From the sequence record OQ703618.1: a stretch of DNA of 64,000 bases; one strand, 5' to 3'. How positions within the stretch are numbered: position 1 is the stretch's first letter; each line of letters starts with the position of its first letter. Below the pieces are notes generated by a model. The model was given only the letters and a program-made list of their open reading frames with translations. It was not told the DNA's origin and ran no database searches. The position numbers and the translations under genes were made by a program. Below, piece by piece: positions 3,807-34,493 of the stretch. Source of the stretch: Escherichia phage GADS24.

Positions 3807-4907
3807 TTACGCTGTGAAGATTTTATCCCACATCGCAACAACTGCATCTCGGTTATACTTCTTCCATACTGCTTCAGCGCGTTTAACTCGAGCTTCGTAT
3901 GTGTCAGTGAATTCTAATACAGCTTTTGTGTAAAGCGCAACTACTTCTTTCTTAGGAGTAGAGGAATCAATTTCTACACGCACAGTATCTGGGTCGTATT
4001 CGAATGTCGCATGAGGATAATCCTTAAAAACTAACTGGATTACAGGGACACCTTTAGAGATGGCTTCAATAGAACTATTCTCTACTGTACCTGTGTCAGG
4101 ACACGTATTAATAAGTGCTTTAGCTGTTTTAAGACGTTCCATGATTTCACTGTGTGGAGCATCAATAATAACAGGATATTTAGCTGGTGGTGCCCATTTA
4201 CTAGGACAGTATCCTACACCATTTTCGCCTAGTGCTTTAATCGCTTCAAGAGCAACATCAGTACGACGCATTTTAGTGTCATAACGTTGTGCACTAATAA
4301 TCAAATCAGTTGCCGGGAGAACTTCTGGTTTTTCAGTCAAACAAATAACCGGATAATCTTCGGCTTCAAACAACGGATTTGCTCGCCAATAATCATAATC
4401 AATTTTGTCAGTCAGACCTGAAGTCATATAACAATATTTGCGTTCAAATTCACGGAAGGCTTTAGTAGGAGCATAACTCTTACCACCATTCTTATGAATT
4501 TGAATAGTCTGGTCCCAAATTTGAACAATGCCACGAGATACCGGTTCAAATGGTGTTGCCATAAAATTCTTATGAACTTTAGAGAGACCTGCGTCTTTAA
4601 TTGCCTGAACGGTTAGTTTAGTCGGTTCCATAGTAACAACAAAATCGTATTCATGTATGCCGGCTAGTTCGACAATCTTACGAGCCATAGTATAACTCAT
4701 ACCTAGACTGAATTTAGTCAGATGTCCAACAGGGTGGTGTGTAACTTTCCAGTCACCAAACGTGTCATTATCAAAGCCGATATAATCAATATCAGCACCG
4801 ATGGACACAAGATATTTCAACACATTTAAATGTACTGCTTCAAGACCACCTTGTACACGGTCAGGATTAAATGGGACTGCACGAGATGGGATAAACATAA
4901 CTTTCAT
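3807..4907 (-). CDS. GT-B fold glycosyltransferase (candidate DNA sugar transferase)
   Basis: 366 aa; C-terminal E-x-x-x-EA-x-x-KG-x-PVI motif typical of GT1/GT4 enzymes; inserted between rIIA.1 and topoisomerase. Confidence 0.6.
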   Translation of the reverse strand: MKVMFIPSRAVPFNPDRVQGGLEAVHLNVLKYLVSIGADIDYIGFDNDTFGDWKVTHHPVGHLTKFSLGMSYTMARKIVELAGIHEYDFVVTMEPTKLTVQAIKDAGLSKVHKNFMATPFEPVSRGIVQIWDQTIQIHKNGGKSYAPTKAFREFERKYCYMTSGLTDKIDYDYWRANPLFEAEDYPVICLTEKPEVLPATDLIISAQRYDTKMRRTDVALEAIKALGENGVGYCPSKWAPPAKYPVIIDAPHSEIMERLKTAKALINTCPDTGTVENSSIEAISKGVPVIQLVFKDYPHATFEYDPDTVRVEIDSSTPKKEVVALYTKAVLEFTDTYEARVKRAEAVWKKYNRDAVVAMWDKIFTA

Positions 4908-4951: not shown

Positions 4952-6767
4952 AGGACATCCATTCTTTACGAAGTTCTGAATCATCACCCAACAACATTTC
5001 AAAGAGTTCTTTCCAGTTTTCAGGAAGTTTAACTACGTCGTACACAGGGTTCTGAATCATTTCACGATATTCTGACTTTTCAAGGGAGCCTAATCCCTTG
5101 ATGTATCGAATACTATGCTTAGGCAGTGTATCTTTAACTTCTTCATACTCAGCTACAGTATAAAACCATTTTTGAGTTTTGCCAATTTGTGCAATAATTA
5201 CAGGCGTTTTAACAAAGCGAATACGTCCTTGTTCAAACAATTCAGGCCAATTACTAAAGAAAGCAAGCAAAGCCGGATAAATACTTCCAAGGCCGTCATG
5301 ATCGGCATCGGTCATAATTGCAATATTACGATAGTTCGTATTCTCTGCCTTTTCACCAAGAATAAGACCTGTGATAGCACAGATATCAAAGAGCTCTTTG
5401 TTCTTCATCATATCAGCATATGACATACCCCAGCTATTCATCACCTTACCACGTAATGGGAATCCACCGTGTAGTTCACGGTCACGAACATCAATGAGAT
5501 AACCAATTGCCGAATCACCTTCTGTTAAGAACAATGTCGTATCTGCATCTTTACCACATTGGTTAGCTTTAATATGCTTATGAACCTTAGCTTTAGTTGC
5601 CTTTTTAGCTGCTTTAGTTTCTGCAGCCTTTTCTGCTGCCAATTTACGAGCTAATGCTGCTTCAACAATAGGCATAATCAAGGCTTCGTTTTTAAGAAGT
5701 GCCTGAGCAATTTTCTTAGCATCTAATTGGATATGATTACGAATATCACCATACGTTGACGTTAATCGTTCTTTAGTCTGAGAATCAAAACGCATGTTGC
5801 TCATGTCTCTAATAAACATCAACATTGTGAGGCATTCTTTAACACGAGCTTTAGTGACTTCAATACCCTTATATTTCTTTTTAATACCAGGCAAAAGATG
5901 TTCGCAGATATCATCCATTACACATTCAACATGATGACCACCGTTTTTAGTATGGATGTTATTCACATAAGTTAAATGACGGAAGCCGTCTGGTGATGTT
6001 GTGAATGCTATAGAGACTTTATCATTTTCTTGAATGATGTTATCTTCGCCAAATTGTTTAGCAAATCGTTTAAAATTACCATCAACCTTTTTACCATTAA
6101 ATGTGAACTTGATATCAGGATAAACGACTGCCAATGTTTGAAGTCGGTCTAAAGTAATATCTAAATAAATTTGAGATAAATTATGCTCTTCAAACGAAGA
6201 GAAATCAGGAGTGAAGATTACTTTAGTGCCTTTACCTTTAGATTTCTTAGAAGACCATGATTTGTTTTCCATTCCGTTTGAACAGTTAACAGTGATTTCA
6301 TTTTCGCCATCCGACGTGATGCCTGTAAACAACGTGGAGAAGATATTAGTTAAACTACTCCCGACGCCGTTCATACCACCAGTCTTGCGTTCAGAGTCAT
6401 CACCAAAGTTACCACCGGCCTTTGGAATAGTCCAGGCTGCTACAGGCCCAGGAATTTGTTCACCTGTTTGGTCGGTAACTAAACCTTGAGGAATACCACG
6501 TCCGTTATCTTCCACCGAAACTTGATTATTTTTAATTTGCACATCAATTTTATTTGCAAACTTAAATGATGTACGAATAGCTTCATCAACCGAGTTGTCA
6601 ATAATCTCATCGATTAATTTAACCAGACCAGGAACATATTCAACTTGTTGATATTTACCAAACAAAAAACGCTCATGGGCTTCTTTAGCAGAAGAACCAA
6701 TATACATACCACTACGTTTCTTAATATGTTCTACATCTGACAATACCTTAATTTCATTTTTAATCAT
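4950..6767 (-). CDS. 39: DNA topoisomerase II large subunit, fused gp60+gp39 (GyrB-like ATPase)
   Basis: 605 aa; GHKL ATPase and TOPRIM motifs; single uninterrupted ORF, no gene-60 bypass. Confidence 0.85.
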   Translation of the reverse strand: MIKNEIKVLSDVEHIKKRSGMYIGSSAKEAHERFLFGKYQQVEYVPGLVKLIDEIIDNSVDEAIRTSFKFANKIDVQIKNNQVSVEDNGRGIPQGLVTDQTGEQIPGPVAAWTIPKAGGNFGDDSERKTGGMNGVGSSLTNIFSTLFTGITSDGENEITVNCSNGMENKSWSSKKSKGKGTKVIFTPDFSSFEEHNLSQIYLDITLDRLQTLAVVYPDIKFTFNGKKVDGNFKRFAKQFGEDNIIQENDKVSIAFTTSPDGFRHLTYVNNIHTKNGGHHVECVMDDICEHLLPGIKKKYKGIEVTKARVKECLTMLMFIRDMSNMRFDSQTKERLTSTYGDIRNHIQLDAKKIAQALLKNEALIMPIVEAALARKLAAEKAAETKAAKKATKAKVHKHIKANQCGKDADTTLFLTEGDSAIGYLIDVRDRELHGGFPLRGKVMNSWGMSYADMMKNKELFDICAITGLILGEKAENTNYRNIAIMTDADHDGLGSIYPALLAFFSNWPELFEQGRIRFVKTPVIIAQIGKTQKWFYTVAEYEEVKDTLPKHSIRYIKGLGSLEKSEYREMIQNPVYDVVKLPENWKELFEMLLGDDSELRKEWMS

Positions 6768-9648: not shown

Positions 9649-9678
9649 ATTTTTTCTCTCTTTGTTTAAGTTGAATTC

Positions 9679-9707
9679 ATTATACTCCATCCATCCTTGG
9701 ATGTACA
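9679..9707 (-). promoter_or_regulatory. T4-type early promoter (-35 TGTACA, -10 TATAAT)
   Basis: Hexamers 17 bp apart; part of repeated ~40-bp cassette. Confidence 0.55.
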
Positions 9708-9710
9708 ACA

Positions 9711-10205
9711 TTAATTTAGAATATTAACTACTGCACTACGTGGAACCACACTAAAGTCACCGGCATGAACAACGTTCAGAAGTTCAACCCCATCTTCAAT
9801 CCACTGGTCAGTTACCCAGCCACTTACCGGTCCAGCGAATGGTCGACGAATTGAAACTGCTTTACACAACAAGTCTGTAGGCTCAATAGGCTTAATCAGA
9901 GTACCGTACATACAAGCGATATCCATATCAAAGTGGAGACCATCTTTAACAGGTGCTTCTTCAATCAACAGTTCAAAGTCAGTGCTTGGAATGGCGGTAG
10001 TAGAAATTGTACCGTGTGAATTTTTAATTTCTAAGAATAACCAAGGGCCTTCAGCTTGTTTGATGAAGTTAACAATAGTGAAACTATTACCTTGAGTGGC
10101 ACCTAAAATTTCACAAAACTTTTCATAAGCTCGCACTGAAGCACCGTACCAGTTGATTTGTTTTTCGTCTTTCAGGATGTAAGTAGCCGTAGTATTGATA
10201 TTCAT
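9711..10205 (-). CDS. hypothetical protein, tandem paralog family member C
   Basis: 164 aa; C-terminal WVTDQWIEDGVELLNVV block related to members A and B. Confidence 0.55.
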   Translation of the reverse strand: MNINTTATYILKDEKQINWYGASVRAYEKFCEILGATQGNSFTIVNFIKQAEGPWLFLEIKNSHGTISTTAIPSTDFELLIEEAPVKDGLHFDMDIACMYGTLIKPIEPTDLLCKAVSIRRPFAGPVSGWVTDQWIEDGVELLNVVHAGDFSVVPRSAVVNILN

Positions 10206-10220
10206 AATGTTTTTCCTGTT

Positions 10221-10270
10221 TGGTTAAGATAGAAAGATTATACTCCAACCATCCTTGGTTGTAAACTGAT
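10221..10270 (-). repeat. ~50-bp early-promoter cassette copy (near-identical to 51801..51853)
   Basis: agatagaaagattatactccaacc[a/g]tccttggttgtaaactgattt seen at both sites. Confidence 0.7.
10237..10266 (-). promoter_or_regulatory. T4-type early promoter (-35 GTTTACA, -10 TATAAT)
   Basis: Hexamers with 17/18-bp spacer inside repeat cassette. Confidence 0.55.
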
Positions 10271-10271
10271 T

Positions 10272-10949
10272 TTATCGCTGTTTTACACTTAACGGGTCAG
10301 GATTCTCAGGGACATCTTCAAGGCCAAGCGCATAACGCTGAGCATATTTTAACATCAAAATATCTTTAGCACAATCATGAATACTATCATGGGCAACGAA
10401 TCCTTTTAGCGTACCCATCGGTAATGGACACATACTTAATCCTCGTGTCAACGAGTAAGCTTCGATTGCCGTACGAATATCGCGTTGAGCCCAGAATTTA
10501 ACCGGTTCTAATTTATCGGTATCAATCTCTGGTTCAAGAACACCTTCATCACGATAGAGGTCACGAATCAAATCGACCAATATCGGGAAGTCAAAGCTCA
10601 TACCACGGCACCACATCTGTGATTTCCATTGGTCAACTTTATTAGCTCGGCAATAATCTAAAAAGATTTTAATGCCTTCAAGCGTAGTGACATCGTCTTC
10701 AGACGGAGCTAGGTTTTTACGTGCTTCTGCTGATTGTTCTTTCCACCATTTCATAGTGGATTTAGCGAAAACTCGCTTCCCTTTCTGAGAAGCTAAATTA
10801 AATTTAATTCGCTTACCTCGTTGAACAAGTTCTTCAAATGATTCAACAACTTCAGGGTCGGAATTATATGCAATAACCGCAAGGTCAATAACAGCCGCTT
10901 TTGATGTATTGCCGAATGTTTCAAAATCTATAATAACATCAGTGCTCAT
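10272..10949 (-). CDS. dexA: exonuclease A (DEDD 3'-5' exonuclease)
   Basis: 225 aa; DFETFG motif and overall similarity to T4 DexA. Confidence 0.8.
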   Translation of the reverse strand: MSTDVIIDFETFGNTSKAAVIDLAVIAYNSDPEVVESFEELVQRGKRIKFNLASQKGKRVFAKSTMKWWKEQSAEARKNLAPSEDDVTTLEGIKIFLDYCRANKVDQWKSQMWCRGMSFDFPILVDLIRDLYRDEGVLEPEIDTDKLEPVKFWAQRDIRTAIEAYSLTRGLSMCPLPMGTLKGFVAHDSIHDCAKDILMLKYAQRYALGLEDVPENPDPLSVKQR

Positions 10950-10958
10950 AATTTTCTC

Positions 10959-12272
10959 TCAAATAAAATGGACGTCAAACCGACCACGAGTTGTGCCAAC
11001 ATACAATAACTGTTTAGCTAATTCTGAATCGGCATAATGGATACACGGTGTATAAACAAAGGCCGTGTCAACAGACATACCCTGGGCCTTATGGAAGGTT
11101 GATACTGGTAGTGCCTTCACCTTAGTGAACATACGTTTAGCATCCCAGAATTCGCTCCATGGAGCTTTACCACCTTTATTCCAAAATTTGTATGTTTCTG
11201 CGGTTTTAGCCAAAAACAAATTGAATTTATAAAGCTCTTCTTCAGAAGAAATAACCTTTATATCTTCGCGGATGTATTCTTCATCATCCCCATATGTTTC
11301 TACTGTAAGATTCCAGTATCGTATCATATATTCGCCTGAAACACCCCGTGCTTTAACAAATGTAGACGTTTCTACAGCATCTCGAATACGAACGAATTGT
11401 CCGTTATTGAAAAGCATTTCAGTCATATTTTTGCCATCTAACTTATATGTCTTGGTAAACGGCTCTTGTAGAACAATGACTTCATCTTTAATAAATGGCT
11501 TTTCTGTTTCGAGAAGTTTTCGGCGAATAATTGAATTTAACTTGTCTACTGACTTATTTGTGAATGCCATCATTCGATTTTCGAAAAGGTCTTCAGGAGT
11601 TTTAACGACGTTAAAATAATTCATCATATACGATTTAAGGTCTGTATATCCGTGAACACCGTGCCCATCAACTACTTTATCGTAAATCCATTTGCCATTA
11701 CGAATATCAGTCGCAACATCAATAATTGGTGCATTGCTACGTTTAACTTCTGTAAGGTTGCATTGCACGAAGTCTTTGTGTGTGAAGAAAGGACTTAGAT
11801 ACGCAGTTGATTCGCCTGGGTCTACCGGACGAATTTGGCATCGGTCGCCGATTCCAATTACTGTACACCATTTAGGGATACTAGCTAACATTATTTTAAA
11901 CAGAGAACGGTCGCACATTGACGCTTCATCAAATAACAGCACACGGCACAAGGCTAAGTCTGGAACCTTTTTCTGTTCAAATAATACGTTTTCTTCGTAT
12001 GTAGTTGGGTTGATTTTAAGAATGCTATGAATAGTCGATGCTTCTTGACCTGCGAGTTTGCTTAGAACCTTTTTAGCAGCATGTGTAGGGGCTGCTAAAA
12101 TAATACCTGATTCTCCAGAAGAAATAAGGGCTTCAACGATGAATCTAGTAAGGGTTGTTTTACCTGTACCAGCAGGCCCATTAATAGTTACGTGATGTTT
12201 CTTTTCTTTAATAGCGTTCATAACAACGTTGAAGGCGTTTTTCTGGCCTTCAGTCAAATCATCAAATGTCAT
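10959..12272 (-). CDS. dda: Dda DNA helicase (SF1)
   Basis: 437 aa; Walker A GPAGTGKTT; T4 Dda-like. Confidence 0.85.
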   Translation of the reverse strand: MTFDDLTEGQKNAFNVVMNAIKEKKHHVTINGPAGTGKTTLTRFIVEALISSGESGIILAAPTHAAKKVLSKLAGQEASTIHSILKINPTTYEENVLFEQKKVPDLALCRVLLFDEASMCDRSLFKIMLASIPKWCTVIGIGDRCQIRPVDPGESTAYLSPFFTHKDFVQCNLTEVKRSNAPIIDVATDIRNGKWIYDKVVDGHGVHGYTDLKSYMMNYFNVVKTPEDLFENRMMAFTNKSVDKLNSIIRRKLLETEKPFIKDEVIVLQEPFTKTYKLDGKNMTEMLFNNGQFVRIRDAVETSTFVKARGVSGEYMIRYWNLTVETYGDDEEYIREDIKVISSEEELYKFNLFLAKTAETYKFWNKGGKAPWSEFWDAKRMFTKVKALPVSTFHKAQGMSVDTAFVYTPCIHYADSELAKQLLYVGTTRGRFDVHFI

Positions 12273-25182: not shown

Positions 25183-25200
25183 CAGGCTCTTAACGAGCCC
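25183..25200 (-). terminator. weak hairpin terminator after kinase gene
   Basis: Stem ggctc/gagcc followed by T-rich tract on minus. Confidence 0.3.
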
Positions 25201-25738
25201 ATTTGATAATTTCTGTAATCAAATTATTACGTTCGCTTGCATTAAATCCTATAACTTTGTTAGCACCATCATGATTAAGTAATTGATATGTTTGGATTTT
25301 GTTATGAATTGCAAACTCTTCAAAATGTGAAATGACTGTATTAAAACCGAATGAAGACAAAGTAATAAGGTCGTCTTCAAAACTTTCAGTCATTTCGTTA
25401 CGTGTTAAAATAATTGTGAACACATCATGGTTTTGGCAAAGACGAACATAATCCTGTTCATAAACATCAAGAACCGAGTCCGCATCTTGTCGAATACGTC
25501 CATAAACCCAGTTACTAATATATCCACGGTCTAACAGATAAATCTTAGTAGGGTCTAAATAATTCAACATCGTTTCGAAACAGCCAACTTCATTTCGAGA
25601 CTTAACATCAAAACGTCCATCAACTGTTCGTTTAGGGAAATCAATTTTTACATATCTTTCACTAATTTCCATTATGTCATTAATGAAAGTTGTTTTACCA
25701 GCATTATCCGGGCCATCTACTAAAATAATTTTAGCCAT
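25190..25738 (-). CDS. P-loop nucleoside/nucleotide kinase-like protein
   Basis: 182 aa; Walker A GPDNAGKTT; LLDRGY lid-like motif. Confidence 0.55.
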   Translation of the reverse strand: MAKIILVDGPDNAGKTTFINDIMEISERYVKIDFPKRTVDGRFDVKSRNEVGCFETMLNYLDPTKIYLLDRGYISNWVYGRIRQDADSVLDVYEQDYVRLCQNHDVFTIILTRNEMTESFEDDLITLSSFGFNTVISHFEEFAIHNKIQTYQLLNHDGANKVIGFNASERNNLITEIIKWAR

Positions 25739-25739
25739 T

Positions 25740-26639
25740 TTATTCCTCGATTACGACATCTTCGTATTTAGGTATATTATACGGTGAAGAAATTAAAGCA
25801 TTAAAGTAGATGAACTCGCCAAGACCTGGATGGAATACTTCTTCAGGATTTTCGAAATATTGAATCTTCGGCCGTCCTTTAAGAATTTGATAGTACTCAG
25901 TTTTAGTTGGTTTAAAAATTCGAATCAGCGCTTCTTCAGGATACTTATTTCTATCGAAGCTATTATTTGGATCGGTTACATAAAGCGGTTGACCTAATTG
26001 AATTGCACATTCAACCACTTGTTCAAAACGATAGCACGGGTCACTAATTCGAAATGGATGAAAAATACCATCTAGATGAATAGGAGCCAAATCACCTACA
26101 AAACGCTGCATGATGGAAGGACGTATAACTTTCTGGGTTACGATAATCTTATTACCATCTGCACCAGCGTTAACCAGCACTTCCTTTTGACGTTCATTCA
26201 ACACAGTAGTTTGAAGTGAACGATTAACCGACAACATGTCGGTTTTTAAGAATTCGTCAATATAAAAACGTGGTTTATTAGGGTCTGCAGTGATATTGAA
26301 ATTGAATTCTACATCAAAAGCTCCGTCATATCCAGTGATATCTGTTATTAGAAAATCACAATCATAATAAGCAATTAATGAATCAACCACAAATTCATTT
26401 TCAGACCAGAAATATTTACGAGTGTTATACGCGTTATCTTTATACCATAACGGAACAAACTTAAATTCTGGGAAAAGACGTTCACATTCTTTAATATCAG
26501 ATGCATTACGTGGATATGTAATAACATCACCCGGATTAGCACGGTGCAAATGAAGTTGGAAGTTGCCATCCTTAAGGATAGCATACTCTCCAGTTTCATA
26601 AGACCGCATACTCAAGATAGGTACGCGGAAAATAGCCAT
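25740..26639 (-). CDS. putative glycosyltransferase (GT-B-like) at the T4 beta-gt locus
   Basis: 299 aa; C-terminal FEQVVECAIQLGQPLYVTD resembles GT-B donor-binding motif; position uvsX-42. Confidence 0.45.
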   Translation of the reverse strand: MAIFRVPILSMRSYETGEYAILKDGNFQLHLHRANPGDVITYPRNASDIKECERLFPEFKFVPLWYKDNAYNTRKYFWSENEFVVDSLIAYYDCDFLITDITGYDGAFDVEFNFNITADPNKPRFYIDEFLKTDMLSVNRSLQTTVLNERQKEVLVNAGADGNKIIVTQKVIRPSIMQRFVGDLAPIHLDGIFHPFRISDPCYRFEQVVECAIQLGQPLYVTDPNNSFDRNKYPEEALIRIFKPTKTEYYQILKGRPKIQYFENPEEVFHPGLGEFIYFNALISSPYNIPKYEDVVIEE

Positions 26640-27355
26640 TAGTCAAGGAATCCTTTAACATAATCAAAATCACGTTCAAACACATGGGCACTTACCATGG
26701 TATGAGTATAATCACCAACTTCTACACCACATTCGTTAGCGATATAATGAAGTAATTTTCCTTGGAGATAAAAATCCAACTGCATAACAACAGCACAGTT
26801 CTGAGAACGCATATGGCAGTGGGTATAAAGCTTACCATCACGAATATAATAAGTCACTGAGTCAGTACATGGATATTCAAGCGTTTCGTCCGAATCAAGC
26901 AAAGCCTGATCAGAACTTTCTAGAATTTGGAACACAACTCTTCGAGAGTTAGGTTTCTCTTTAAGTTCTTTGAGAAGAGCTGGTAACTGGGCCGCAATTC
27001 GTGGACCATAGAAAGTGTTGAAGTTTGCAGGCAAAGCATCTGATTTCGGTTTAGAAATAAATTTAGCAACGTTAGGATATGCCTTAAATGCTTCTTCTGC
27101 ATCAGTTCCGCCAGAAATCATAAATTTCCAGAAATCTTCGGCATATTCATAAGAGATGCGGTTAATACGTGGGTCGGTCATTTTGAATGATGATGGAGTG
27201 TCAACAACTACTGTCATAGACCCAATTTCATTACAACGTCCAATACGAGAATCAGTTACGAATTCCGGGTTTTCTAAAATCTCACGATTGACTGCTTTAA
27301 ATGCGGATTGAAAATCTGCGGCTTTAATATATTTCATTGTGTTATGTTTTCCCAT
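26639..27355 (-). CDS. 42: dCMP hydroxymethylase gp42 (thymidylate synthase fold)
   Basis: 238 aa; NSRR...YPCTDSV...HMRSQN motifs parallel T4 gp42. Confidence 0.8.
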   Translation of the reverse strand: MGKHNTMKYIKAADFQSAFKAVNREILENPEFVTDSRIGRCNEIGSMTVVVDTPSSFKMTDPRINRISYEYAEDFWKFMISGGTDAEEAFKAYPNVAKFISKPKSDALPANFNTFYGPRIAAQLPALLKELKEKPNSRRVVFQILESSDQALLDSDETLEYPCTDSVTYYIRDGKLYTHCHMRSQNCAVVMQLDFYLQGKLLHYIANECGVEVGDYTHTMVSAHVFERDFDYVKGFLD

Positions 27356-27396: not shown

Positions 27397-27636
27397 TTAT
27401 TTGAATTTCTTAGCGATGTTGATATAACGTAGAGCTTCGGCATCGATACTTCTAAGGACACTATGAAGGAATGCGTCGGCATAGTATTCTAGTTGAACAG
27501 GTTCTTTAATCGCTTTAGCCGCTTTAGTTTCAAACAGGCCCATAAGGGCCTTTTTAAGAATTTGTTCGTTGCTGGTAATTTTAATAGTCAAAATCTCTTC
27601 ATTAAGTTGGTGGTTAAAAGTTTTTCTAGAAATCAT
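27397..27636 (-). CDS. hypothetical protein
   Basis: 79-aa ORF. Confidence 0.4.
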   Translation of the reverse strand: MISRKTFNHQLNEEILTIKITSNEQILKKALMGLFETKAAKAIKEPVQLEYYADAFLHSVLRSIDAEALRYINIAKKFK

Positions 27637-28793
27637 TCCGGGTACCTCAAAGCGTCGTCAGAGTTAGTTATATCAATAATAGATATAGAATTTTCTGATA
27701 ACCCATTTTTAGATAACTGACGTTTATAATATCTTTCACAATATGTACACGTCGTCCCGCAGATTTCATTAGCACAATCGAAATCTGGATGTCTGAACCA
27801 CCTTTTTTCTAAAAAGCCGTCTAACAAAGAGGTTTCAATATTTACCGTATGTGAAAACTCGGTCTCATTTTCAAGAGTGAAAATGGTCTCTAAAGGCTTC
27901 CACAGTTCTAACAAATTACCTTCAAACTTTTCAGAAGCGTATGCTTCAAGAACTTTCAAAATGTAGTCTGTGCTACCTGTACGTCCTGAAACTTTGAATT
28001 GAGTGATACCAATATCATTATAAAGTTTCAAATCTTGTGGACGAACAAAACGAGTTCTCAACCAGTTAAATGGGTCTGTATCACGAGCTTTAATACAGTG
28101 CTGCATAGGATATCCATTTAAGGATTTAGCATCATCAGCTGTAACATCAGTACTATGGAAAATATAGCAAGAGTCACGATAGCTACAATGTGTTGTATAC
28201 CCTTTACCAGCATTAGAACAGAACTCATTTACAAGAACTTCAAATATTATATTGTTCTTATTGCAAAACTCTGCTGCACGCTTCAGGAAAGAAACTGAAC
28301 GGTTCTTATGAATTCCACAGCAGACCTTTTTGATATTATACTGGTCATGTAAGTATTTGATTTGAGTTACAGCATCGACATGTAAAATTGTTGAAACTTC
28401 AATCTCAATGTCTTTATTGACTTCACGAACAATTTCCATAACAACAGGGTTAGCGATAGTAATACGCCATACGCCTATTGACCAAAGATACTGAACATAA
28501 TCCTGAATAGCTTTCTTCTTCCACTCAACTAGTTCTCTTTTTGAACCGGGATTTATCGTGTTGAGTGTATAGTTAAAGCAAATACCTAATTCGTTACAAC
28601 GTTTAACGTAATCTTCTAACATCTTTTTGTCAACGTCAGGAAGCCTAAAATCAGGTCTGGCTGCTACAAAAGCCATTTCTCTTGTAGAGCCGTATACTTC
28701 GTTTATCAAGCTATTAGGATAAGTTTTATTGAGCTCTACGATTTTATCAAGAAGAGCTAAATCAAAATTCGTTCCGATTTTAAAAGTATTCAT
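27633..28793 (-). CDS. Cys-rich hypothetical enzyme in modification cluster
   Basis: ~386 aa from ATG preceded by A9 tract; multiple Cys clusters (CCGIH, CANEICGTTCTYCE). Confidence 0.5.
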   Translation of the reverse strand: MNTFKIGTNFDLALLDKIVELNKTYPNSLINEVYGSTREMAFVAARPDFRLPDVDKKMLEDYVKRCNELGICFNYTLNTINPGSKRELVEWKKKAIQDYVQYLWSIGVWRITIANPVVMEIVREVNKDIEIEVSTILHVDAVTQIKYLHDQYNIKKVCCGIHKNRSVSFLKRAAEFCNKNNIIFEVLVNEFCSNAGKGYTTHCSYRDSCYIFHSTDVTADDAKSLNGYPMQHCIKARDTDPFNWLRTRFVRPQDLKLYNDIGITQFKVSGRTGSTDYILKVLEAYASEKFEGNLLELWKPLETIFTLENETEFSHTVNIETSLLDGFLEKRWFRHPDFDCANEICGTTCTYCERYYKRQLSKNGLSENSISIIDITNSDDALRYPE

Positions 28794-28852
28794 TTTTTTT
28801 TTGCATCTCACGTTAATTGACGCGATGGTTTTTGCAGGTCTTACTTAAATTA

Positions 28853-29239
28853 TTATAGATTCGGTTTATATGATTTAAATGTTTCGAATTCGCCTTTATT
28901 CATAAGAGCTTTGAATTCGTCGGGACGCATAGCTTTGTCGTCGATAATCCAATCATATACTGGTTTATGTGTTAGCAAATTATGGTACTTCAAGCCAATG
29001 TTTGCCAAGTTCTGAATAAGACTTGGGAGAATGTCAATTGCTATACGACCAGGACCTACTGACTTCATACCGCGAGCAGTGTAAAGCGTTATGGTATGCC
29101 CTGCATCATACAGGGCATTAATGGCAGACACCATTTCGACGTCTGGTTTGAAGTTCACGTAATCACGATTGTTATTCCACTCTGTTATACAATCATCGAC
29201 ATCAAAACAAAGATTAAGCATGTTTTCTACACGGTGCAT
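28853..29239 (-). CDS. HAD-like phosphatase (small)
   Basis: FDVDDC motif (DxD) near N-terminus; start overlaps upstream stop (TAATG). Confidence 0.45.
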   Translation of the reverse strand: MHRVENMLNLCFDVDDCITEWNNNRDYVNFKPDVEMVSAINALYDAGHTITLYTARGMKSVGPGRIAIDILPSLIQNLANIGLKYHNLLTHKPVYDWIIDDKAMRPDEFKALMNKGEFETFKSYKPNL

Positions 29240-30924
29240 TAGATTCGTTCCCATTGATGAGTGATATCGCCACCGATTGGACGATAGGAAACACCAGTTT
29301 CTTTATCAGTTAGTACCCATTTACCAGGATTTTTTGTAATCAGAGTAGCCGTTACAGGTTCTGCCATGTCATAACTAATAGAGCCGTCCTGAAGTACACG
29401 GCCCATGTTACGTAATTGCTTAGTCAGAAGTTCCATACCTTTATAATATGCGGCTACCGCTTTAAGTGGATTATTCTTGAAATAACCACCTAATGCAATC
29501 CAGATAATTGCTACAGCCAAATGATGATACTCGTTAAATGAACTCATCTTTCCATATTTGTAAACTAATGGATTGATGTTAATAGTCACATTACAAGTTG
29601 TTTCATCAATAGTAAACTGTCCCCAGGTCGGATTAGCGTTGAATTCATCATAACCTGAAACAGCATAAAGCACTTTAGCTTCATCGTACAATTTTGGCCC
29701 GTAAATCTTGGTTTCGCCAAAATATCCACGAGGGTCGATAAACTTGACTTCGCCGTTATCAGTAATCATAGTATTACTGAAGTTCGGGTCACCGTGAATA
29801 ACAGAGTACTGTCCCTGAGAACGGTTATGATAACGAATAAGGTGTTCTAAAGCTTGTTTCAGCATTGGCTTCAGACGCCCAATCTTAGTGTAGTTCACAT
29901 GTGTGATTTTACCAAATGAATCAATCAATGGTTGAATACTTTCACAACGATCAATAACTTTCGTATAGAATTCTTTAGTGAAATCACGACGAACAGTTTC
30001 AGGACTTACAAAATAAGTGTCTGTGCTGAATTTCAGTGCATCTAAAATTGCATCAACAATTTGTGGACGAGCAAGACTCGATTTAGATTTAATATATTCA
30101 AATGCCGGCTTACCTTTAATGCGTTCCATTTCAAAGTTATTTTCATTAACAGAAACTAACTGAGGAACTGAATCTGATTTCACTTTAAGATACCATGAAA
30201 TCTCATCTTTCTGAAGAGCTCGTCCCTGTTCGGTTAATGCGAATTTAGTTACAGTTTCTTCACCAATTTCAACTGCATTAAAACTACGATTAAGTTCACG
30301 AACTTCATGAGCTTTTTCAAGTTTAGGCATATCACCTAAATCAATTAGATTCATAAGCTCTGATTTATTGAATGCGCCGCTGTAAAGGAATTCTACGAAA
30401 TCACGTCCTTTGCAGTATTCATGAATTTCCTCATCAGTAGAACCCATATAGAATTCCCAGTCTTTGAATTGATAAATTCCTACAACATTACCACCTGTTG
30501 AACCTACGTTAGTGATATTTTCACCGTCGAAATTATATCGACATTCGTCACCCTTAACATAGATTGCGTTAACATTCCAAGACCATGAACCAAAATCAGG
30601 AATAATATCACACCAGTTAACAATTACATTATGGCCGTCTAAATCTTTGTGTAATTTAGCAAGAGCATAAGCGGAACCATATGCTTCATCAACTGTACGA
30701 ATAGTCACATTGAACCCTTCTTGCTCACAATAAGCTCGAACAGTTTCAGCAAATTTTGAATGAACTACTACAATAATTTCATCTGCGCCAAGGTCAGAAT
30801 AAATTGTATACAAATTGCTCAGAATAGTGTCTTGTTTATAGTTAACAAGCACCTTAGGAATATGATGCGTTATTGGATACAAACGAGTTGCCAGTCCAGC
30901 ACCAAGAATAACAGCTTTTTTCAT
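29239..30924 (-). CDS. bifunctional sugar-1-phosphate nucleotidyltransferase / APH-like sugar kinase
   Basis: N-term GAGLATRLYPITHHIPKVL (G-x-G-T-R NTase); C-term HGDPNFSN and IDPRG (Brenner kinase motifs). Confidence 0.7.
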   Translation of the reverse strand: MKKAVILGAGLATRLYPITHHIPKVLVNYKQDTILSNLYTIYSDLGADEIIVVVHSKFAETVRAYCEQEGFNVTIRTVDEAYGSAYALAKLHKDLDGHNVIVNWCDIIPDFGSWSWNVNAIYVKGDECRYNFDGENITNVGSTGGNVVGIYQFKDWEFYMGSTDEEIHEYCKGRDFVEFLYSGAFNKSELMNLIDLGDMPKLEKAHEVRELNRSFNAVEIGEETVTKFALTEQGRALQKDEISWYLKVKSDSVPQLVSVNENNFEMERIKGKPAFEYIKSKSSLARPQIVDAILDALKFSTDTYFVSPETVRRDFTKEFYTKVIDRCESIQPLIDSFGKITHVNYTKIGRLKPMLKQALEHLIRYHNRSQGQYSVIHGDPNFSNTMITDNGEVKFIDPRGYFGETKIYGPKLYDEAKVLYAVSGYDEFNANPTWGQFTIDETTCNVTININPLVYKYGKMSSFNEYHHLAVAIIWIALGGYFKNNPLKAVAAYYKGMELLTKQLRNMGRVLQDGSISYDMAEPVTATLITKNPGKWVLTDKETGVSYRPIGGDITHQWERI

Positions 30925-30952
30925 GTTGTGGTCCTCATTGGTAAGTAGGAGT

Positions 30953-30977
30953 ATTGTACACTATTCTAGTTAAAGCA
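30953..30977 (-). promoter_or_regulatory. T4-type middle promoter (MotA box TGCTTTA, 12-bp spacer, -10 TACAAT)
   Basis: Minus-strand motif ~30 nt upstream of NTase-kinase ATG. Confidence 0.45.
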
Positions 30978-31099
30978 TTCATACTTTGCTTGTAGTCCAA
31001 TCATAATCCATCCAATTACAAGTGTTGGAATCATTACTGGAGCCGTTAAGCTCCAGTAGATAGTCATGACAAGCATCAATAGTAAAAGTCCTATTGTTA
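30956..31099 (-). CDS. small hydrophobic protein (47 aa)
   Basis: Hand-translated MKAITIGLLLLMLVMTIYW...; overlaps middle promoter. Confidence 0.25.
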
Positions 31100-31105
31100 T
31101 TGCTT

Positions 31106-31741
31106 TCATTGTTCGCCTCGTAACATGGCACCTAGTGCACCACCAGGGTGGAACTTAAGGAAGTCATTAGAGGTAAATCCACGTTCAGACGAAAGGTTGA
31201 TAGCGAACGTATCGATAAGCGCTAACAACAATGTAGTAGACATTGTCGGAGCTAAAGAGTTCTCGTCAACTTCTACCGCGATGCCTGTACAGAAAGAGTA
31301 ATCAAAAAGGGCTTCATTTTCTTGCGGAATGTCAGGGTTACAATGTAACAGAATCTGTTTAACCTGAGGACGAATCATACGAAGATGTTTAGCAACACCT
31401 ATCATTTCTTCGGTTTTACCAGAACGACTAATATGAATCAACACATCATTAGGCGCAATGAATCCTGCATCACCGTGAGAATAATGCCCAGTGTTCAAGT
31501 ACATACTCGGGATACCGAGTGAAGCAAATGTCTCAGAAGCTTTAGTTGCAATATTAGCATTCTTACCAACACCTGTAATAATTACTCGGCTTTCATAATT
31601 ACTAAGTCCTGGGCGTCGAAGAGTTTCTAGAATAGCATTATAACGAGCAGGGTTTTGACTAATTACTTTGGCCATAGTAGCCAAAGAAGAAGCTTGTTTT
31701 ACGATTGCGTCAATAGCGATAGTAATAGGAGTAGTTTTCAT
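31106..31741 (-). CDS. SIS-domain sugar phosphate isomerase (KdsD/GutQ-type arabinose-5-phosphate isomerase-like, no CBS domains)
   Basis: 211 aa; GVGKNANIATKASETFASLGIPS...HGD...ISRSGKTEE matches SIS signature. Confidence 0.7.
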   Translation of the reverse strand: MKTTPITIAIDAIVKQASSLATMAKVISQNPARYNAILETLRRPGLSNYESRVIITGVGKNANIATKASETFASLGIPSMYLNTGHYSHGDAGFIAPNDVLIHISRSGKTEEMIGVAKHLRMIRPQVKQILLHCNPDIPQENEALFDYSFCTGIAVEVDENSLAPTMSTTLLLALIDTFAINLSSERGFTSNDFLKFHPGGALGAMLRGEQ

Positions 31742-31781
31742 ATTTCTCTCATTTAATTAGTTTACCGTCCATGGTATTATA

Positions 31782-34493
31782 TCAAAAATCGAACATATCG
31801 AACAGAGATGCTTTCTTCTCGTAATCGAGTTTCGCCGCTGATGTGAATCCTTCAAGTGGTTTAATAAATGTCTTCTCAAGGAGAACAGTGTAGTCCATCC
31901 AATGAAGTACGTCGTCTTTAATTAAATCTGTGATTTCAGTACCAGAAGGCCATGCGATACATTTATCACCGAATGGGTTTCCTTCACGTAAAGGCAGAAC
32001 ATATACTTTTTCACCTTCTACAACTTGCGGTGCATCGATATTACCTTTGATAGCTCTGTTATATGTCAGAATTCCACGAATATGGAACGGACATTTAGGA
32101 CCAGGGAATCCACCAACGTCATATTTAGCAATGTTATTCGCAGAAGATACCGACGCGATGCTAATATAATTCAATTGACGGAATTCTTTTTCAAACTCTT
32201 TAAAATATTCTTGTAATGATTCTTCACCTTCTTGAAGCATACGGCGAATACATTCTTTAAGAGCTTTCTGTACTGCTTTAGGGGTCGAAGATTTCTGAGT
32301 CTCTAGACCCATGATTTTGAGTTTAGGCTCAGCGTAACGAGTACCTTCCATATCCCACACGTTTAATGCATAACGTTTCTTACCAGTCCAGAATCCACCA
32401 ATACCTTTAGAACCGAGTGGAGGACCAGCGATAGCTTCTCGGTCCATGAACATTAAGTGTTGTTTATTGTTCATGTATTCACACATTTCACGGAAACCTC
32501 TATCAATAGCTGGTTCCATACGTTCACGTGCAAACTTATCTAAGAAGTCTACCCAATGGTTGGTATCACGGAATTTAGATTCACCAACCTTATCAATAAT
32601 TTTATCAGCAGATACGTAAATAGAGTCTGTATCACCATAAAGAACGAAAGCTTCACCTTCTGTGCCACAAACTTCATTCAGATATTCATTAACTTTACGT
32701 TCAATCCACTGTAAAGCCATTTGCCCGAATGTTGTGATTGCAGTAGCATTACGCAAATCATAATAACGGAACCAAACGTTGCCAAGTGCACCATAAAGTG
32801 AGTTGATAAGCAATTTACGGTTAATTTGGGCAGTCATACCTGCAACTTCAGTACGTTGAGCTCTAAACAACATTTCATTAAGAGATTTAGCAGACAACTT
32901 TTTAATCTTTTCTTTAATCTCATCACTGAAGTCGAAACGATAATCAACATCTAACGGTTCGTCAACAGAAAGATTAGGATTATGCAATGCCTCTTTAATT
33001 ATTTCACCGTTACGTTGAGCCGCAAGCATATAACCTTTATGTTCTTTACGTTGATTAAAGACTTTAGTGATTTCAGTTGGAACAACACCGTCACGGTCTT
33101 TATAATACATCATGCCGTTAGGAGAACAACTGTACACATCAGAAGGTCGTTCAGCAACAGCGTTAATATAATCATGCAATGGAGCTACTTTAAACGTTCC
33201 TGCTATTGTTTCTGGGCTAATATTCACTTGGCGAATAATACTTGGATACAGAGATGTGAGGTCGAAGCTCATCACATATTTGTATCGATTTGGAATAGGT
33301 TCCTTAACAAAAGCGCCAGGATAAGGTTGAACCGGATGAGAACGACCTTGTGGAATCACCTTGTTCTGCTCTTTAAGGCTATTAAAAATAATAGCATCCC
33401 ATGTTTTAATAGGGCTAAACACAGATTGAATCTGTATCTTAGCATAATAACCCATGTCCAAGCTCAAGTTAATGAACTGACGTTTACCATCAATTTGCAA
33501 TACACGATACACGTCGATAATGTTATAAGAAATATATCGTTGGTGATTGCTTTCACGAAGCTTAGAAATAGGGCCGTCATATTTCAGTTTACCAACGTTC
33601 AATTCAAATTCTGAAATGTAATCCAGAGAATACGACGGTTGATTAGTAAAAGAGAATTTTTTGTAAAGGTCAATGTAATCAAGAACAGAGATACCGAACA
33701 ATGTAATGATTTCACGAGAACCATACATGTTTTCGATAACTTTAACACGTGTTTTACGATGCGGTGATAAACGTTTCGCAGTAGATTCGCCAAAAATATT
33801 CTTGATTCGGTTATACACATATGGAATATCAAATGACTCAACGTTCCATCCAGTCAAAATGACAGGAGTTTTCTGTTGCCAGAAGTTGAGATATTCCATC
33901 AACAATTCTTTTTCATTATCGAACGGCATATAAACGATTTTGTCGATAATTTCGGATGGAACTTCATCACCACCTTGTTCTTGAAGCTTAGCAGCAATTT
34001 CGATAGACCATTCTTCCACATTACCATATGGAGAATTCAAAAGGTCAAATACGTAGAACCTGTCGTCAATTGAGTCATAATGGGTGATAGCATCAATTGG
34101 ATGTTTTGCTTGTGACGGCTCAGGGAACCCGTCTGGAGATGTTACTTCGATGTCGAAGTTAGCCACACGAATTTTTGTATGGTCGTATTTGATTTCATAG
34201 TTATAAGTGTCAGACAAATACGCCAATTTGAAATCGTCCATGCCAAGTGCTTCAAGTCCGATATCTTCCATGCGTTTAATCCATTGGGAGGCATCACGCA
34301 TATTGGCGAACAACTTACGAGTACACGGCTTACCGTAGATATCGAAATATTTCGTAGCCTGACTTTCCGGACAATGAGCAAACAGTGATGGTTTATATTC
34401 TACTTCACGAGTACGTTCACGGCCATTAGAATCGATGTAACGTTCAAAAATTGAATCACCAATCTGTTCAACCGTTAAGTAAAATTCTTTCAT
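31782..34493 (-). CDS. 43: DNA polymerase gp43 (family B, RB69-type, 903 aa)
   Basis: Exo motifs FDIEV, YGDTDS polymerase motif; recognised as RB69-like gp43. Confidence 0.95.
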   Translation of the reverse strand: MKEFYLTVEQIGDSIFERYIDSNGRERTREVEYKPSLFAHCPESQATKYFDIYGKPCTRKLFANMRDASQWIKRMEDIGLEALGMDDFKLAYLSDTYNYEIKYDHTKIRVANFDIEVTSPDGFPEPSQAKHPIDAITHYDSIDDRFYVFDLLNSPYGNVEEWSIEIAAKLQEQGGDEVPSEIIDKIVYMPFDNEKELLMEYLNFWQQKTPVILTGWNVESFDIPYVYNRIKNIFGESTAKRLSPHRKTRVKVIENMYGSREIITLFGISVLDYIDLYKKFSFTNQPSYSLDYISEFELNVGKLKYDGPISKLRESNHQRYISYNIIDVYRVLQIDGKRQFINLSLDMGYYAKIQIQSVFSPIKTWDAIIFNSLKEQNKVIPQGRSHPVQPYPGAFVKEPIPNRYKYVMSFDLTSLYPSIIRQVNISPETIAGTFKVAPLHDYINAVAERPSDVYSCSPNGMMYYKDRDGVVPTEITKVFNQRKEHKGYMLAAQRNGEIIKEALHNPNLSVDEPLDVDYRFDFSDEIKEKIKKLSAKSLNEMLFRAQRTEVAGMTAQINRKLLINSLYGALGNVWFRYYDLRNATAITTFGQMALQWIERKVNEYLNEVCGTEGEAFVLYGDTDSIYVSADKIIDKVGESKFRDTNHWVDFLDKFARERMEPAIDRGFREMCEYMNNKQHLMFMDREAIAGPPLGSKGIGGFWTGKKRYALNVWDMEGTRYAEPKLKIMGLETQKSSTPKAVQKALKECIRRMLQEGEESLQEYFKEFEKEFRQLNYISIASVSSANNIAKYDVGGFPGPKCPFHIRGILTYNRAIKGNIDAPQVVEGEKVYVLPLREGNPFGDKCIAWPSGTEITDLIKDDVLHWMDYTVLLEKTFIKPLEGFTSAAKLDYEKKASLFDMFDF

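Follow-up and report, generated by a model that had tools for sequence, protein, structure and literature searches.

Arabinose has been found on the DNA of phage RB69, and ORF055c and the fused ORF53_52c were proposed as genes for UDP-arabinose synthesis (Thomas et al., 2018, PMC6024577). Mass spectrometry and NMR identified the RB69 base as mono- and di-arabinofuranosyl-5-hydroxycytosine, not a derivative of hydroxymethylcytosine, and RB69 gp48 was demonstrated experimentally to make 5-hydroxy-dCMP with flavin and O2 (Lee et al., 2026, PMC13326640). The proposed route runs from ribulose-5-phosphate (Ru5P) to arabinose-5-phosphate (A5P) through gp55, to arabinose-1,5-bisphosphate through the kinase domain of gp52:53, to arabinose-1-phosphate through the HAD phosphatase gp51 and to UDP-arabinofuranose through the NTase domain of gp52:53, with gp46:47 and gp3 finally putting arabinose onto DNA (PMC13326640). 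The steps of the kinase/pyrophosphorylase AfhE and the phosphatase AfhF were biochemically proven in phage HY126, according to the account of He et al. (2026) given in PMC13326640, and the literature shows transfer on DNA in DLP3. The isomerase assignment carries no 'confirmed experimentally' mark in Table 1 of PMC13326640 and is a computational prediction.

The cellular relatives of this isomerase fall into two architectures. Escherichia coli KdsD and GutQ (KpsF/GutQ family, TIGR00393) share with the phage isomerase analysed here a homologous catalytic SIS domain (35–36% identity) and a C-terminal HPGGALG motif with the second catalytic His, but carry after the SIS domain a tandem CBS pair of approximately 120 aa, which the phage protein does not have. 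The E. coli CFT073 protein c3406 (PDB 5uqi) and the Bacteroides fragilis arabinose-5-phosphate isomerase (API; 3etn) are approximately 200 aa long and consist, like the phage isomerase, of SIS only. Both are A5P isomerases that are active without CBS domains. Stand-alone SIS isomerases of the phage type are already known in bacteria in the form of these two proteins. They share their fold with the phage isomerase (query-normalised TM-score 0.76–0.80) and have the catalytic Lys, His, Glu, Glu and His in common with it, though the structural alignment shows just 29–32% identity. They feed Kdo and capsule synthesis, whereas the phage isomerase lies in a DNA-modification cluster. The sedoheptulose-7-phosphate isomerase GmhA and DiaA share only the broad SIS superfamily fold with it.

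The window analysed in the present study is a stretch of 64,000 nucleotides of Escherichia phage GADS24 (OQ703618.1). A 7-kb query around the isomerase gene matched 314 phage records, Escherichia phage JN02 being 98.5% and RB69 97.5% identical. Because of these identities, the window is assigned to Mosigvirus, that is, to the RB69-like T4-type coliphages. The region follows the T4 gene order of UvsX, gene 43 polymerase, RegA, clamp loader and clamp. The features of the window referred to below, with the evidence for each, are as follows.

3807..4907, minus strand: second predicted DNA arabinosyltransferase (RB69p003 orthologue), outside the cluster; tblastn 98.9% over 366 aa, PMC13326640
16594..17115, minus strand: gp56 dCTPase; tblastn 97.1% identity to RB69p028
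25190..25738, minus strand: thymidylate-kinase-like nucleotide kinase (RB69 gp45); PHROG 761 thymidylate kinase, E = 2.2e-45
25740..26639, minus strand: glycosyltransferase of 299 aa, predicted first DNA arabinosyltransferase (RB69 gp46:47); 98.3% to HY126, PMC13326640 Table 1
26639..27355, minus strand: thymidylate-synthase (TS) homologue, 5-hydroxy-dCMP synthase (RB69 gp48); Pfam Thymidylat_synt and identity to RB69 gp48
27397..27636, minus strand: 79-aa ORF (RB69 gp49) in the slot of chorismate mutase in related phages; position
27633..28811, minus strand: U32-family protein of 392 aa (RB69 gp50); Pfam Peptidase_U32, E = 7.7e-11
28853..29239, minus strand: HAD-type phosphatase (RB69 gp51, HY126 AfhF analogue); NCBIfam EcbF-BcbF capsule biosynthesis phosphatase, E = 4.3e-13
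29239..30924, minus strand: bifunctional NTP-transferase and kinase, here NTase-kinase (RB69 gp52:53, HY126 AfhE analogue); Pfam and HY126
30966..31109, minus strand: hydrophobic ORF of 47 aa, its ATG overlapping the stop codon of the isomerase gene (ATGA); GRAVY 1.36
31106..31741, minus strand: predicted single-SIS-domain arabinose-5-phosphate isomerase (RB69 gp55 orthologue); ORF, Pfam, NCBIfam, PHROG and PDB matches

The isomerase ORF starts with ATG, has a Shine–Dalgarno-like stretch (GAGAG) 5′ of the start and encodes 211 aa. A preliminary description of this DNA had read it as a stand-alone SIS protein resembling KdsD and GutQ, and both the length and the SIS signature motifs (GVGKNANIATKASETFASLGIPS, HGD and ISRSGKTEE) are readable in the translation of 31106..31741 on the minus strand. 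In the 211-aa protein, Pfam detected a single SIS domain (PF01380; residues 51–181, E = 2.6e-10; score 40.7 bits, cut-off 25) and none of the CBS type. The absence of CBS domains, also part of that description, is correct because the isomerase ends seven residues past HPGGALG, the motif after which the CBS pair comes in KdsD and GutQ. In PHROGs, the isomerase belongs to phrog_5670, 'arabinose 5-phosphate isomerase' (E = 2.6e-116), as the same gene as RB69 gp55 and its HY126, LC53 and DLP3 orthologues, and the RB69 orthologue RB69p055 already bears that name in RefSeq. Identity to RB69 gp55 (RB69ORF055c, NP_861745.1) is 98.1%, and that to the HY126 orthologue is 97.2%. Scans of 28700..32100 showed no excess of promoter-like sites (10, against 12.3 expected from shuffled sequence) or of terminator-like sites (1, against 2.1).

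The three top NCBIfam models for the isomerase were kpsF (111.7 bits), KdsD (106.9) and GutQ (80.6), and neither the NCBIfam nor the Pfam search gave a match to GmhA or SIS_2. The best match covers model positions 2–153 of 268, and its 111.7 bits, against a full-length cut-off of 203.7, are to be read as those of a partial match: the isomerase falls under the full-length cut-offs because only the SIS half of the models is matched, the CBS pair being absent. Since it has no tandem CBS pair, the isomerase belongs to the single-domain subgroup and not to KdsD proper. A sequence search of the whole PDB returned only four proteins, namely the B. fragilis isomerase (3etn), c3406 (5uqi, with A5P bound according to its PDB title), the SIS domain of KdsD (2xhz) and a Listeria protein (3fxa). 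BLASTP against SIS protein sequences drawn from the E. coli K-12 genome ranked KdsD (36% identity, E = 2e-32) and GutQ (35%, 1e-23) ahead of the other SIS proteins AgaS (9e-5), MurQ (0.007) and DiaA (0.02), and GmhA gave no match. An AlphaFold2 model built on 48 homologues (pLDDT 95.8) had 2xhz, 3etn and 5uqi as its top Foldseek matches in the PDB (E about 1e-13); GmhA came only at rank 48, with a TM-score of 0.54.

Twenty-one SIS domains were placed in a neighbour-joining tree, with an explicit bootstrap count for every grouping. The bacterial isomerases joined the phage proteins in an API-like clade (99%), inside which the Listeria protein 3fxa also fell. The phage core clade formed a lineage of its own (98%), distinct from the B. 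fragilis API and from c3406 and marked by almost invariant N83, H86 and R106. GmhA grouped with DiaA (100%), and the phage proteins grouped with GmhA in 0% of the replicates. The isomerase was thus placed neither with GmhA nor in another SIS clade, the outcome that the preliminary description had set against its own reading, and HMM scores, BLASTP, fold ranking and bootstrap together rule such a placement out. NCBIfam, PDB and BLASTP matches, active-site residues and the API-like clade agree on a KdsD/GutQ-type isomerase domain without CBS domains.

The active site of KdsD, reported to consist of K59, H88, E111, E152 and H193 (Gourlay et al., 2010; Chiu et al., 2014), aligns with K60, H89, E112, E157 and H198 of the isomerase. 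These five residues are invariant in the 48 phage-clade homologues, down to 35% identity. The 2xhz chain has Ala at the position of K59 of genomic KdsD, which fits its PDB title on probing the active site. The Listeria protein 3fxa is without the Lys and without the Asp of HGD, whereas the isomerase retains both (K60 and D91). Compared with all four bacterial isomerases examined, the phage protein differs at three positions corresponding to KdsD H82 (N83), E85 (H86) and N105 (R106), all of which are near the catalytic histidine, His89, and the Ser/Thr phosphate-binding loop.

The isomerase gene had been described as lying immediately upstream of the DNA polymerase gene and next to the NTase-kinase gene. 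Its position is in fact 40 nt downstream of the gene 43 stop codon, because both genes are on the minus strand. It is a near neighbour of the NTase-kinase gene as claimed, but strict adjacency fails, the 47-aa ORF (30966..31109) intervening. In RB69 and HY126, the isomerase gene likewise lies between gene 43 and the NTase-kinase gene in the same cluster, with few substitutions separating the proteins. Over the interval from the polymerase to UvsX, gene identity is 95–100% to HY126 and 98–99.6% to RB69. The 47-aa ORF is 98% identical to an annotated HY126 ORF and is kept in LC53 (60%) and as orf44 in JS98 (55%). It was rejected as a conserved partner of the isomerase, JS98 having the hydrophobic ORF without an isomerase. 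The ORFs at the same position in a jumbo-phage contig and in phage PAU are hydrophilic and unrelated to the Mosigvirus-type ORF.

The NTase-kinase, 96.4% identical to that of HY126, has a Pfam NTP_transferase domain at its N-terminus and weak kinase-fold matches at residues 344–409. The HAD phosphatase is 100% identical to the HY126 protein, with an alternative upstream ATG at 29254. The TS homologue is 99.6% identical to RB69 gp48, and its active-site stretch, HMRSQNCAVVMQLDFY, is identical. In the automatic MAFFT alignment with ThyA, it was displaced by two residues, putting Ala at position 169; when anchored on the conserved Arg–Ser pair, it showed D169 replaced by N and N177 by D, matching the published replacements (PMC13326640). 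The assignment as 5-hydroxy-dCMP synthase rests on the identity to RB69 gp48 and not on the automatic ThyA alignment. Furthermore, genes 46/47 and 52/53, which are split in the old RB69 record, are intact in the window, in agreement with the published corrections of sequencing errors. Judged by the genes around it, the isomerase belongs to the published arabinosyl-5-hydroxycytosine DNA-modification module (RB69 gp45–55, the HY126 Afh genes and DLP3 gp76–83). The virion DNA of GADS24 would be expected to contain arabinosyl-5-hydroxycytosine, given a nucleotide identity to RB69 of about 97.5%.

The isomerase was found in 275 phage records, 57 of them of Acinetobacter phages. It lies zero to three genes from the NTase-kinase gene in Mosigvirus, Winklervirus LC53, Lazarusvirus AM101, Jiangsuvirus PspYZU05, a 310-kb jumbo-phage contig (46% isomerase identity) and Sphingomonas phage PAU (30%). 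Such linkage over unrelated backbones is good evidence that the isomerase and the NTase-kinase act together. The NTase-kinase occurs in 373 phage records, so that roughly 100 of these are without the isomerase. The module can exist without the isomerase, since Klebsiella phage Kpn BM7 and coliphage JS98 have the one after the polymerase gene but not the other. JS98 orf43, which occupies the isomerase slot, was considered as a non-homologous replacement and rejected, being lipoprotein-like and matching no enzyme family.

In Kpn BM7 and JS98, the TS homologue (78–80%), glycosyltransferase (68–69%) and phosphatase (62–66%) are as conserved relative to the window as they are in LC53, but the NTase-kinase is only 43% identical, compared with 54–71% in isomerase-bearing phages, even those with Acinetobacter and Pseudomonas hosts. 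A divergent NTase-kinase within an otherwise conserved module suggests that the presence of the isomerase and the specificity of the kinase are linked. In the few genomes compared, the isomerase may thus be an optional front end paired with an A5P-specific kinase subtype, and the phages without it may either rely on host KdsD and GutQ for A5P or activate another sugar.

Considering these results, we propose that the gene at 31106..31741 encodes a CBS-less, single-SIS D-arabinose-5-phosphate isomerase feeding phage DNA arabinosylation, with a probability of roughly 0.9, its Ru5P/A5P activity being predicted. The following scenario may explain its role. The isomerase, which its sequence suggests interconverts Ru5P and A5P, would divert D-ribulose-5-phosphate of the host pentose phosphate pathway to D-arabinose-5-phosphate during infection and would thereby be the entry point from host central metabolism into the arabinosylation pathway. 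The NTase-kinase would add a phosphate at C1 of arabinose-5-phosphate, the HAD phosphatase would strip the 5-phosphate from arabinose-1,5-bisphosphate, and the NTase domain would then yield UDP-arabinofuranose. The TS homologue would hydroxylate dCMP, and the resulting 5-hydroxycytosine would be incorporated in DNA before arabinosylation; gp56 dCTPase would deplete dCTP, so that only modified cytosine would be incorporated. The two phage glycosyltransferases would move arabinose onto 5-hydroxycytosine in DNA, giving mono- and di-arabinosylated cytosine, which may guard the phage DNA against host nucleases. The recently elucidated pathway enables T4-like phages to replace every cytosine by arabinosylated 5-hydroxycytosine and thereby to escape restriction enzymes and CRISPR nucleases, a property relevant to the selection and engineering of therapeutic phages.

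The role of the isomerase would probably lie in raising the supply of A5P over the level given by host KdsD and GutQ. A 168-kb genome at 37.2% G+C has approximately 62,500 cytosines, and with one to two arabinoses per cytosine and a burst of at least 100 genomes, the need may amount to several million units per latent period. By an estimate from LPS copy number, this need would at least equal the host's normal use of A5P for Kdo. An enzyme without CBS domains, expressed early as part of the replication gene cluster, could meet such a demand. That the isomerase is a deregulated enzyme, free of CBS domains and of feedback inhibition by CMP-Kdo, that floods the cell with A5P, and might channel it to the kinase, is a tentative and rather doubtful extension of this scenario. 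It would make the phage enzyme more than a second KdsD, in keeping with its separate lineage, its three near-invariant substitutions and its association with one kinase subtype. The claim of the preliminary description that the isomerase supplies a pentose phosphate for DNA modification accords with what was proposed for the 98%-identical RB69 gp55 (PMC6024577, PMC13326640). Both the identity and the proposed role of the isomerase date from 2018 in the literature, with refinements in 2025–2026, and the present analysis is in this respect a confirmation, not a discovery. Possibly new are the optional place of the isomerase in the module, where it tracks the kinase subtype, and the pairing of the U32 protein with chorismate mutase.

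Other roles for a protein of this clade deserve weighing against A5P supply. The isomerase may act on another sugar phosphate, such as a hexose phosphate or another ketose phosphate, with host KdsD and GutQ giving the A5P. One member of the API-like clade, the Listeria protein 3fxa, is said, in a 2014 report by Cech and co-workers, to be a glucose-6-phosphate isomerase. The phage-specific N83, H86 and R106, being near neighbours of His89 and the Ser/Thr loop, would also suit a shifted substrate, as would the relatives that retain the rest of the module without an isomerase. However, the isomerase has K60 and D91, both lost in 3fxa, along with all five KdsD active-site residues; the isomerase-less relatives are those with the divergent NTase-kinase (43% compared with 54–71%) in a conserved remaining module; and it is arabinose that the DNA carries (PMC6024577, PMC13326640). 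We thus consider a different substrate very unlikely.

Even less probable is a role at the host envelope, in which the isomerase would change the supply of Kdo, LPS or capsule in the manner of KpsF or KdsD, for example in superinfection exclusion. The bacterial relatives do serve Kdo and capsule synthesis, as the RB69 annotation note also states, and the small hydrophobic ORF is translationally coupled to the isomerase; yet this ORF persists in JS98 without an isomerase, Kdo-8-P synthase, Kdo-8-P phosphatase and CMP-Kdo synthetase are all absent nearby, and phages of six unrelated backgrounds keep the isomerase beside the NTase-kinase that activates the sugar. We give the least credence to a non-catalytic SIS sensor or regulator that binds a sugar phosphate, like the SIS domains of RpiR and MurR type. 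The SIS domains of RpiR, MurR and NanR appeared among the weaker structural and weak NCBIfam matches, but at five to six orders of magnitude below the isomerase matches, and the protein has no DNA-binding domain and keeps catalytic residues that are all invariant in the phage clade. The reading as an A5P isomerase for DNA arabinosylation is therefore preferred.

The neighbouring U32-family protein offers a side lead. Its RB69 orthologue gp50 is labelled 'sugar or heterocycle reductase' in PMC13326640, with no mention of U32, RlhA or TrhP. [quoted passage not shown] In LC53 and Kpn BM7, a chorismate mutase gene lies directly 3′ of the U32 gene (Pfam CM_2, cut-off 27 bits; scores of 44.6 and 37.3 bits). 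Chorismate mutase makes prephenate, and prephenate is the oxygen donor of UbiU and UbiV, which are U32 Fe–S hydroxylases that work independently of oxygen. The latter property and donor were described in PMC6747719 and PMC10990095. The U32 protein and chorismate mutase may thus form a route of cytosine hydroxylation under the anoxic conditions of the gut, in which the flavin enzyme, needing O2, would fail. In the literature covered by the search, no paper addressed such a role of phage U32 proteins.

Two observations stand against such a route: the slot after U32 in the window holds the 79-aa ORF, which bears no chorismate mutase signature, and JS98 infects E. coli yet is without U32. The 79-aa ORF (27397..27636) was rejected as a diverged chorismate mutase, as it had no Pfam match up to an E-value of 10 and no shared motifs, and BLASTP showed no similarity to the chorismate mutases of LC53 and Kpn BM7. 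The U32 gene was absent from the loci examined in AM101, PspYZU05 and JS98 and from all 57 isomerase-bearing Acinetobacter phage records. It was present in 221 phage records, all at an identity of at least 80%, whose named hosts were all Enterobacterales, plus Shewanella phage Thanatos. Chorismate mutase occurred in 54 phage records and adjoins the TS homologue in the records listed and, in several of these, the U32 gene as well. Three phage U32 orthologues share 13 conserved Cys residues, including a C-terminal CX4CX3CX2C motif.

The U32-family protein of the modification cluster belongs to a family that includes oxygen-independent, prephenate-dependent hydroxylases, namely RlhA, TrhP and UbiU/V (PMC5727448, PMC6599085, PMC6747719, PMC10990095), of which RlhA is needed for 5-hydroxycytidine in rRNA (PMC5727448). 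It is listed here with the other features considered, all on the minus strand of the window:

25740..26639 (-), counterpart of RB69 46/47, one intact ORF of 299 aa
27397..27636 (-), 79-aa ORF (RB69 gp49), in the slot of chorismate mutase in related genera
27633..28811 (-), U32-family protein (RB69 gp50)
28853..29254 (-), HAD phosphatase
29239..30924 (-), NTase-kinase, counterpart of RB69 52/53, one intact ORF of 561 aa
30966..31109 (-), strongly hydrophobic 47-aa ORF (MKAITIGLLLLMLVMTIYW...)
31776..31784 (-), extended -10-like promoter element TGATATAAT, including the gene 43 stop codon

A genuine chorismate mutase (Pfam CM_2) was encoded directly after the U32 gene in Winklervirus LC53 (5004..6514 of its locus) and Klebsiella phage Kpn BM7 (9675..11077), and prephenate is the product of chorismate mutase. 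Judged from sequence, the cluster's U32 protein could be a candidate for an anaerobic route to 5-hydroxycytosine, of which no mention was found in the accessible papers searched. The U32 gene was present in 221 records of Enterobacterales and Shewanella phages, among which were 0 of the 57 isomerase-carrying Acinetobacter phage records, and was absent from the compared locus of Pseudomonas phage PspYZU05. The 79-aa ORF had no Pfam match and no detectable similarity to the chorismate mutases of related genera, and only a 40-aa ORF is annotated at its position in HY126.

The NTase-kinase was present without the isomerase in about 100 phage records. The NTase-kinases of Kpn BM7 and coliphage JS98 showed only 43% identity to that of the window, whereas the rest of the module showed 62-86%, suggesting that the isomerase-less phages may have another sugar specificity or rely on host arabinose-5-phosphate.

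The 46/47 and 52/53 genes, each unbroken in the window, appear as two fragments in the original GenBank entry for RB69. The literature attributes these breaks to Sanger sequencing errors, and the window agrees with that view. The HAD phosphatase is labelled 'phosphoheptose isomerase' in RefSeq and PHROGs, apparently a misannotation that has been propagated; in NCBIfam the protein falls among the capsule biosynthesis phosphatases of the EcbF/BcbF type, and it is described in the literature as an arabinose-1,5-bisphosphate 5-phosphatase (PMC13326640).

The element TGATATAAT, which precedes the start codon of the isomerase by about 35 nt, was not flagged by the consensus promoter scan because it lacks a -35 match; for this reason, and because the genome is AT-rich, it may be a chance occurrence. 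The start of the 47-aa ORF overlaps the isomerase stop codon as ATGA. This ORF, annotated as only 36 aa in RB69, is conserved in LC53 (60%) and JS98 (orf44, 55%); because JS98 retains it without the isomerase, it probably encodes a small membrane protein with no part in the pathway.
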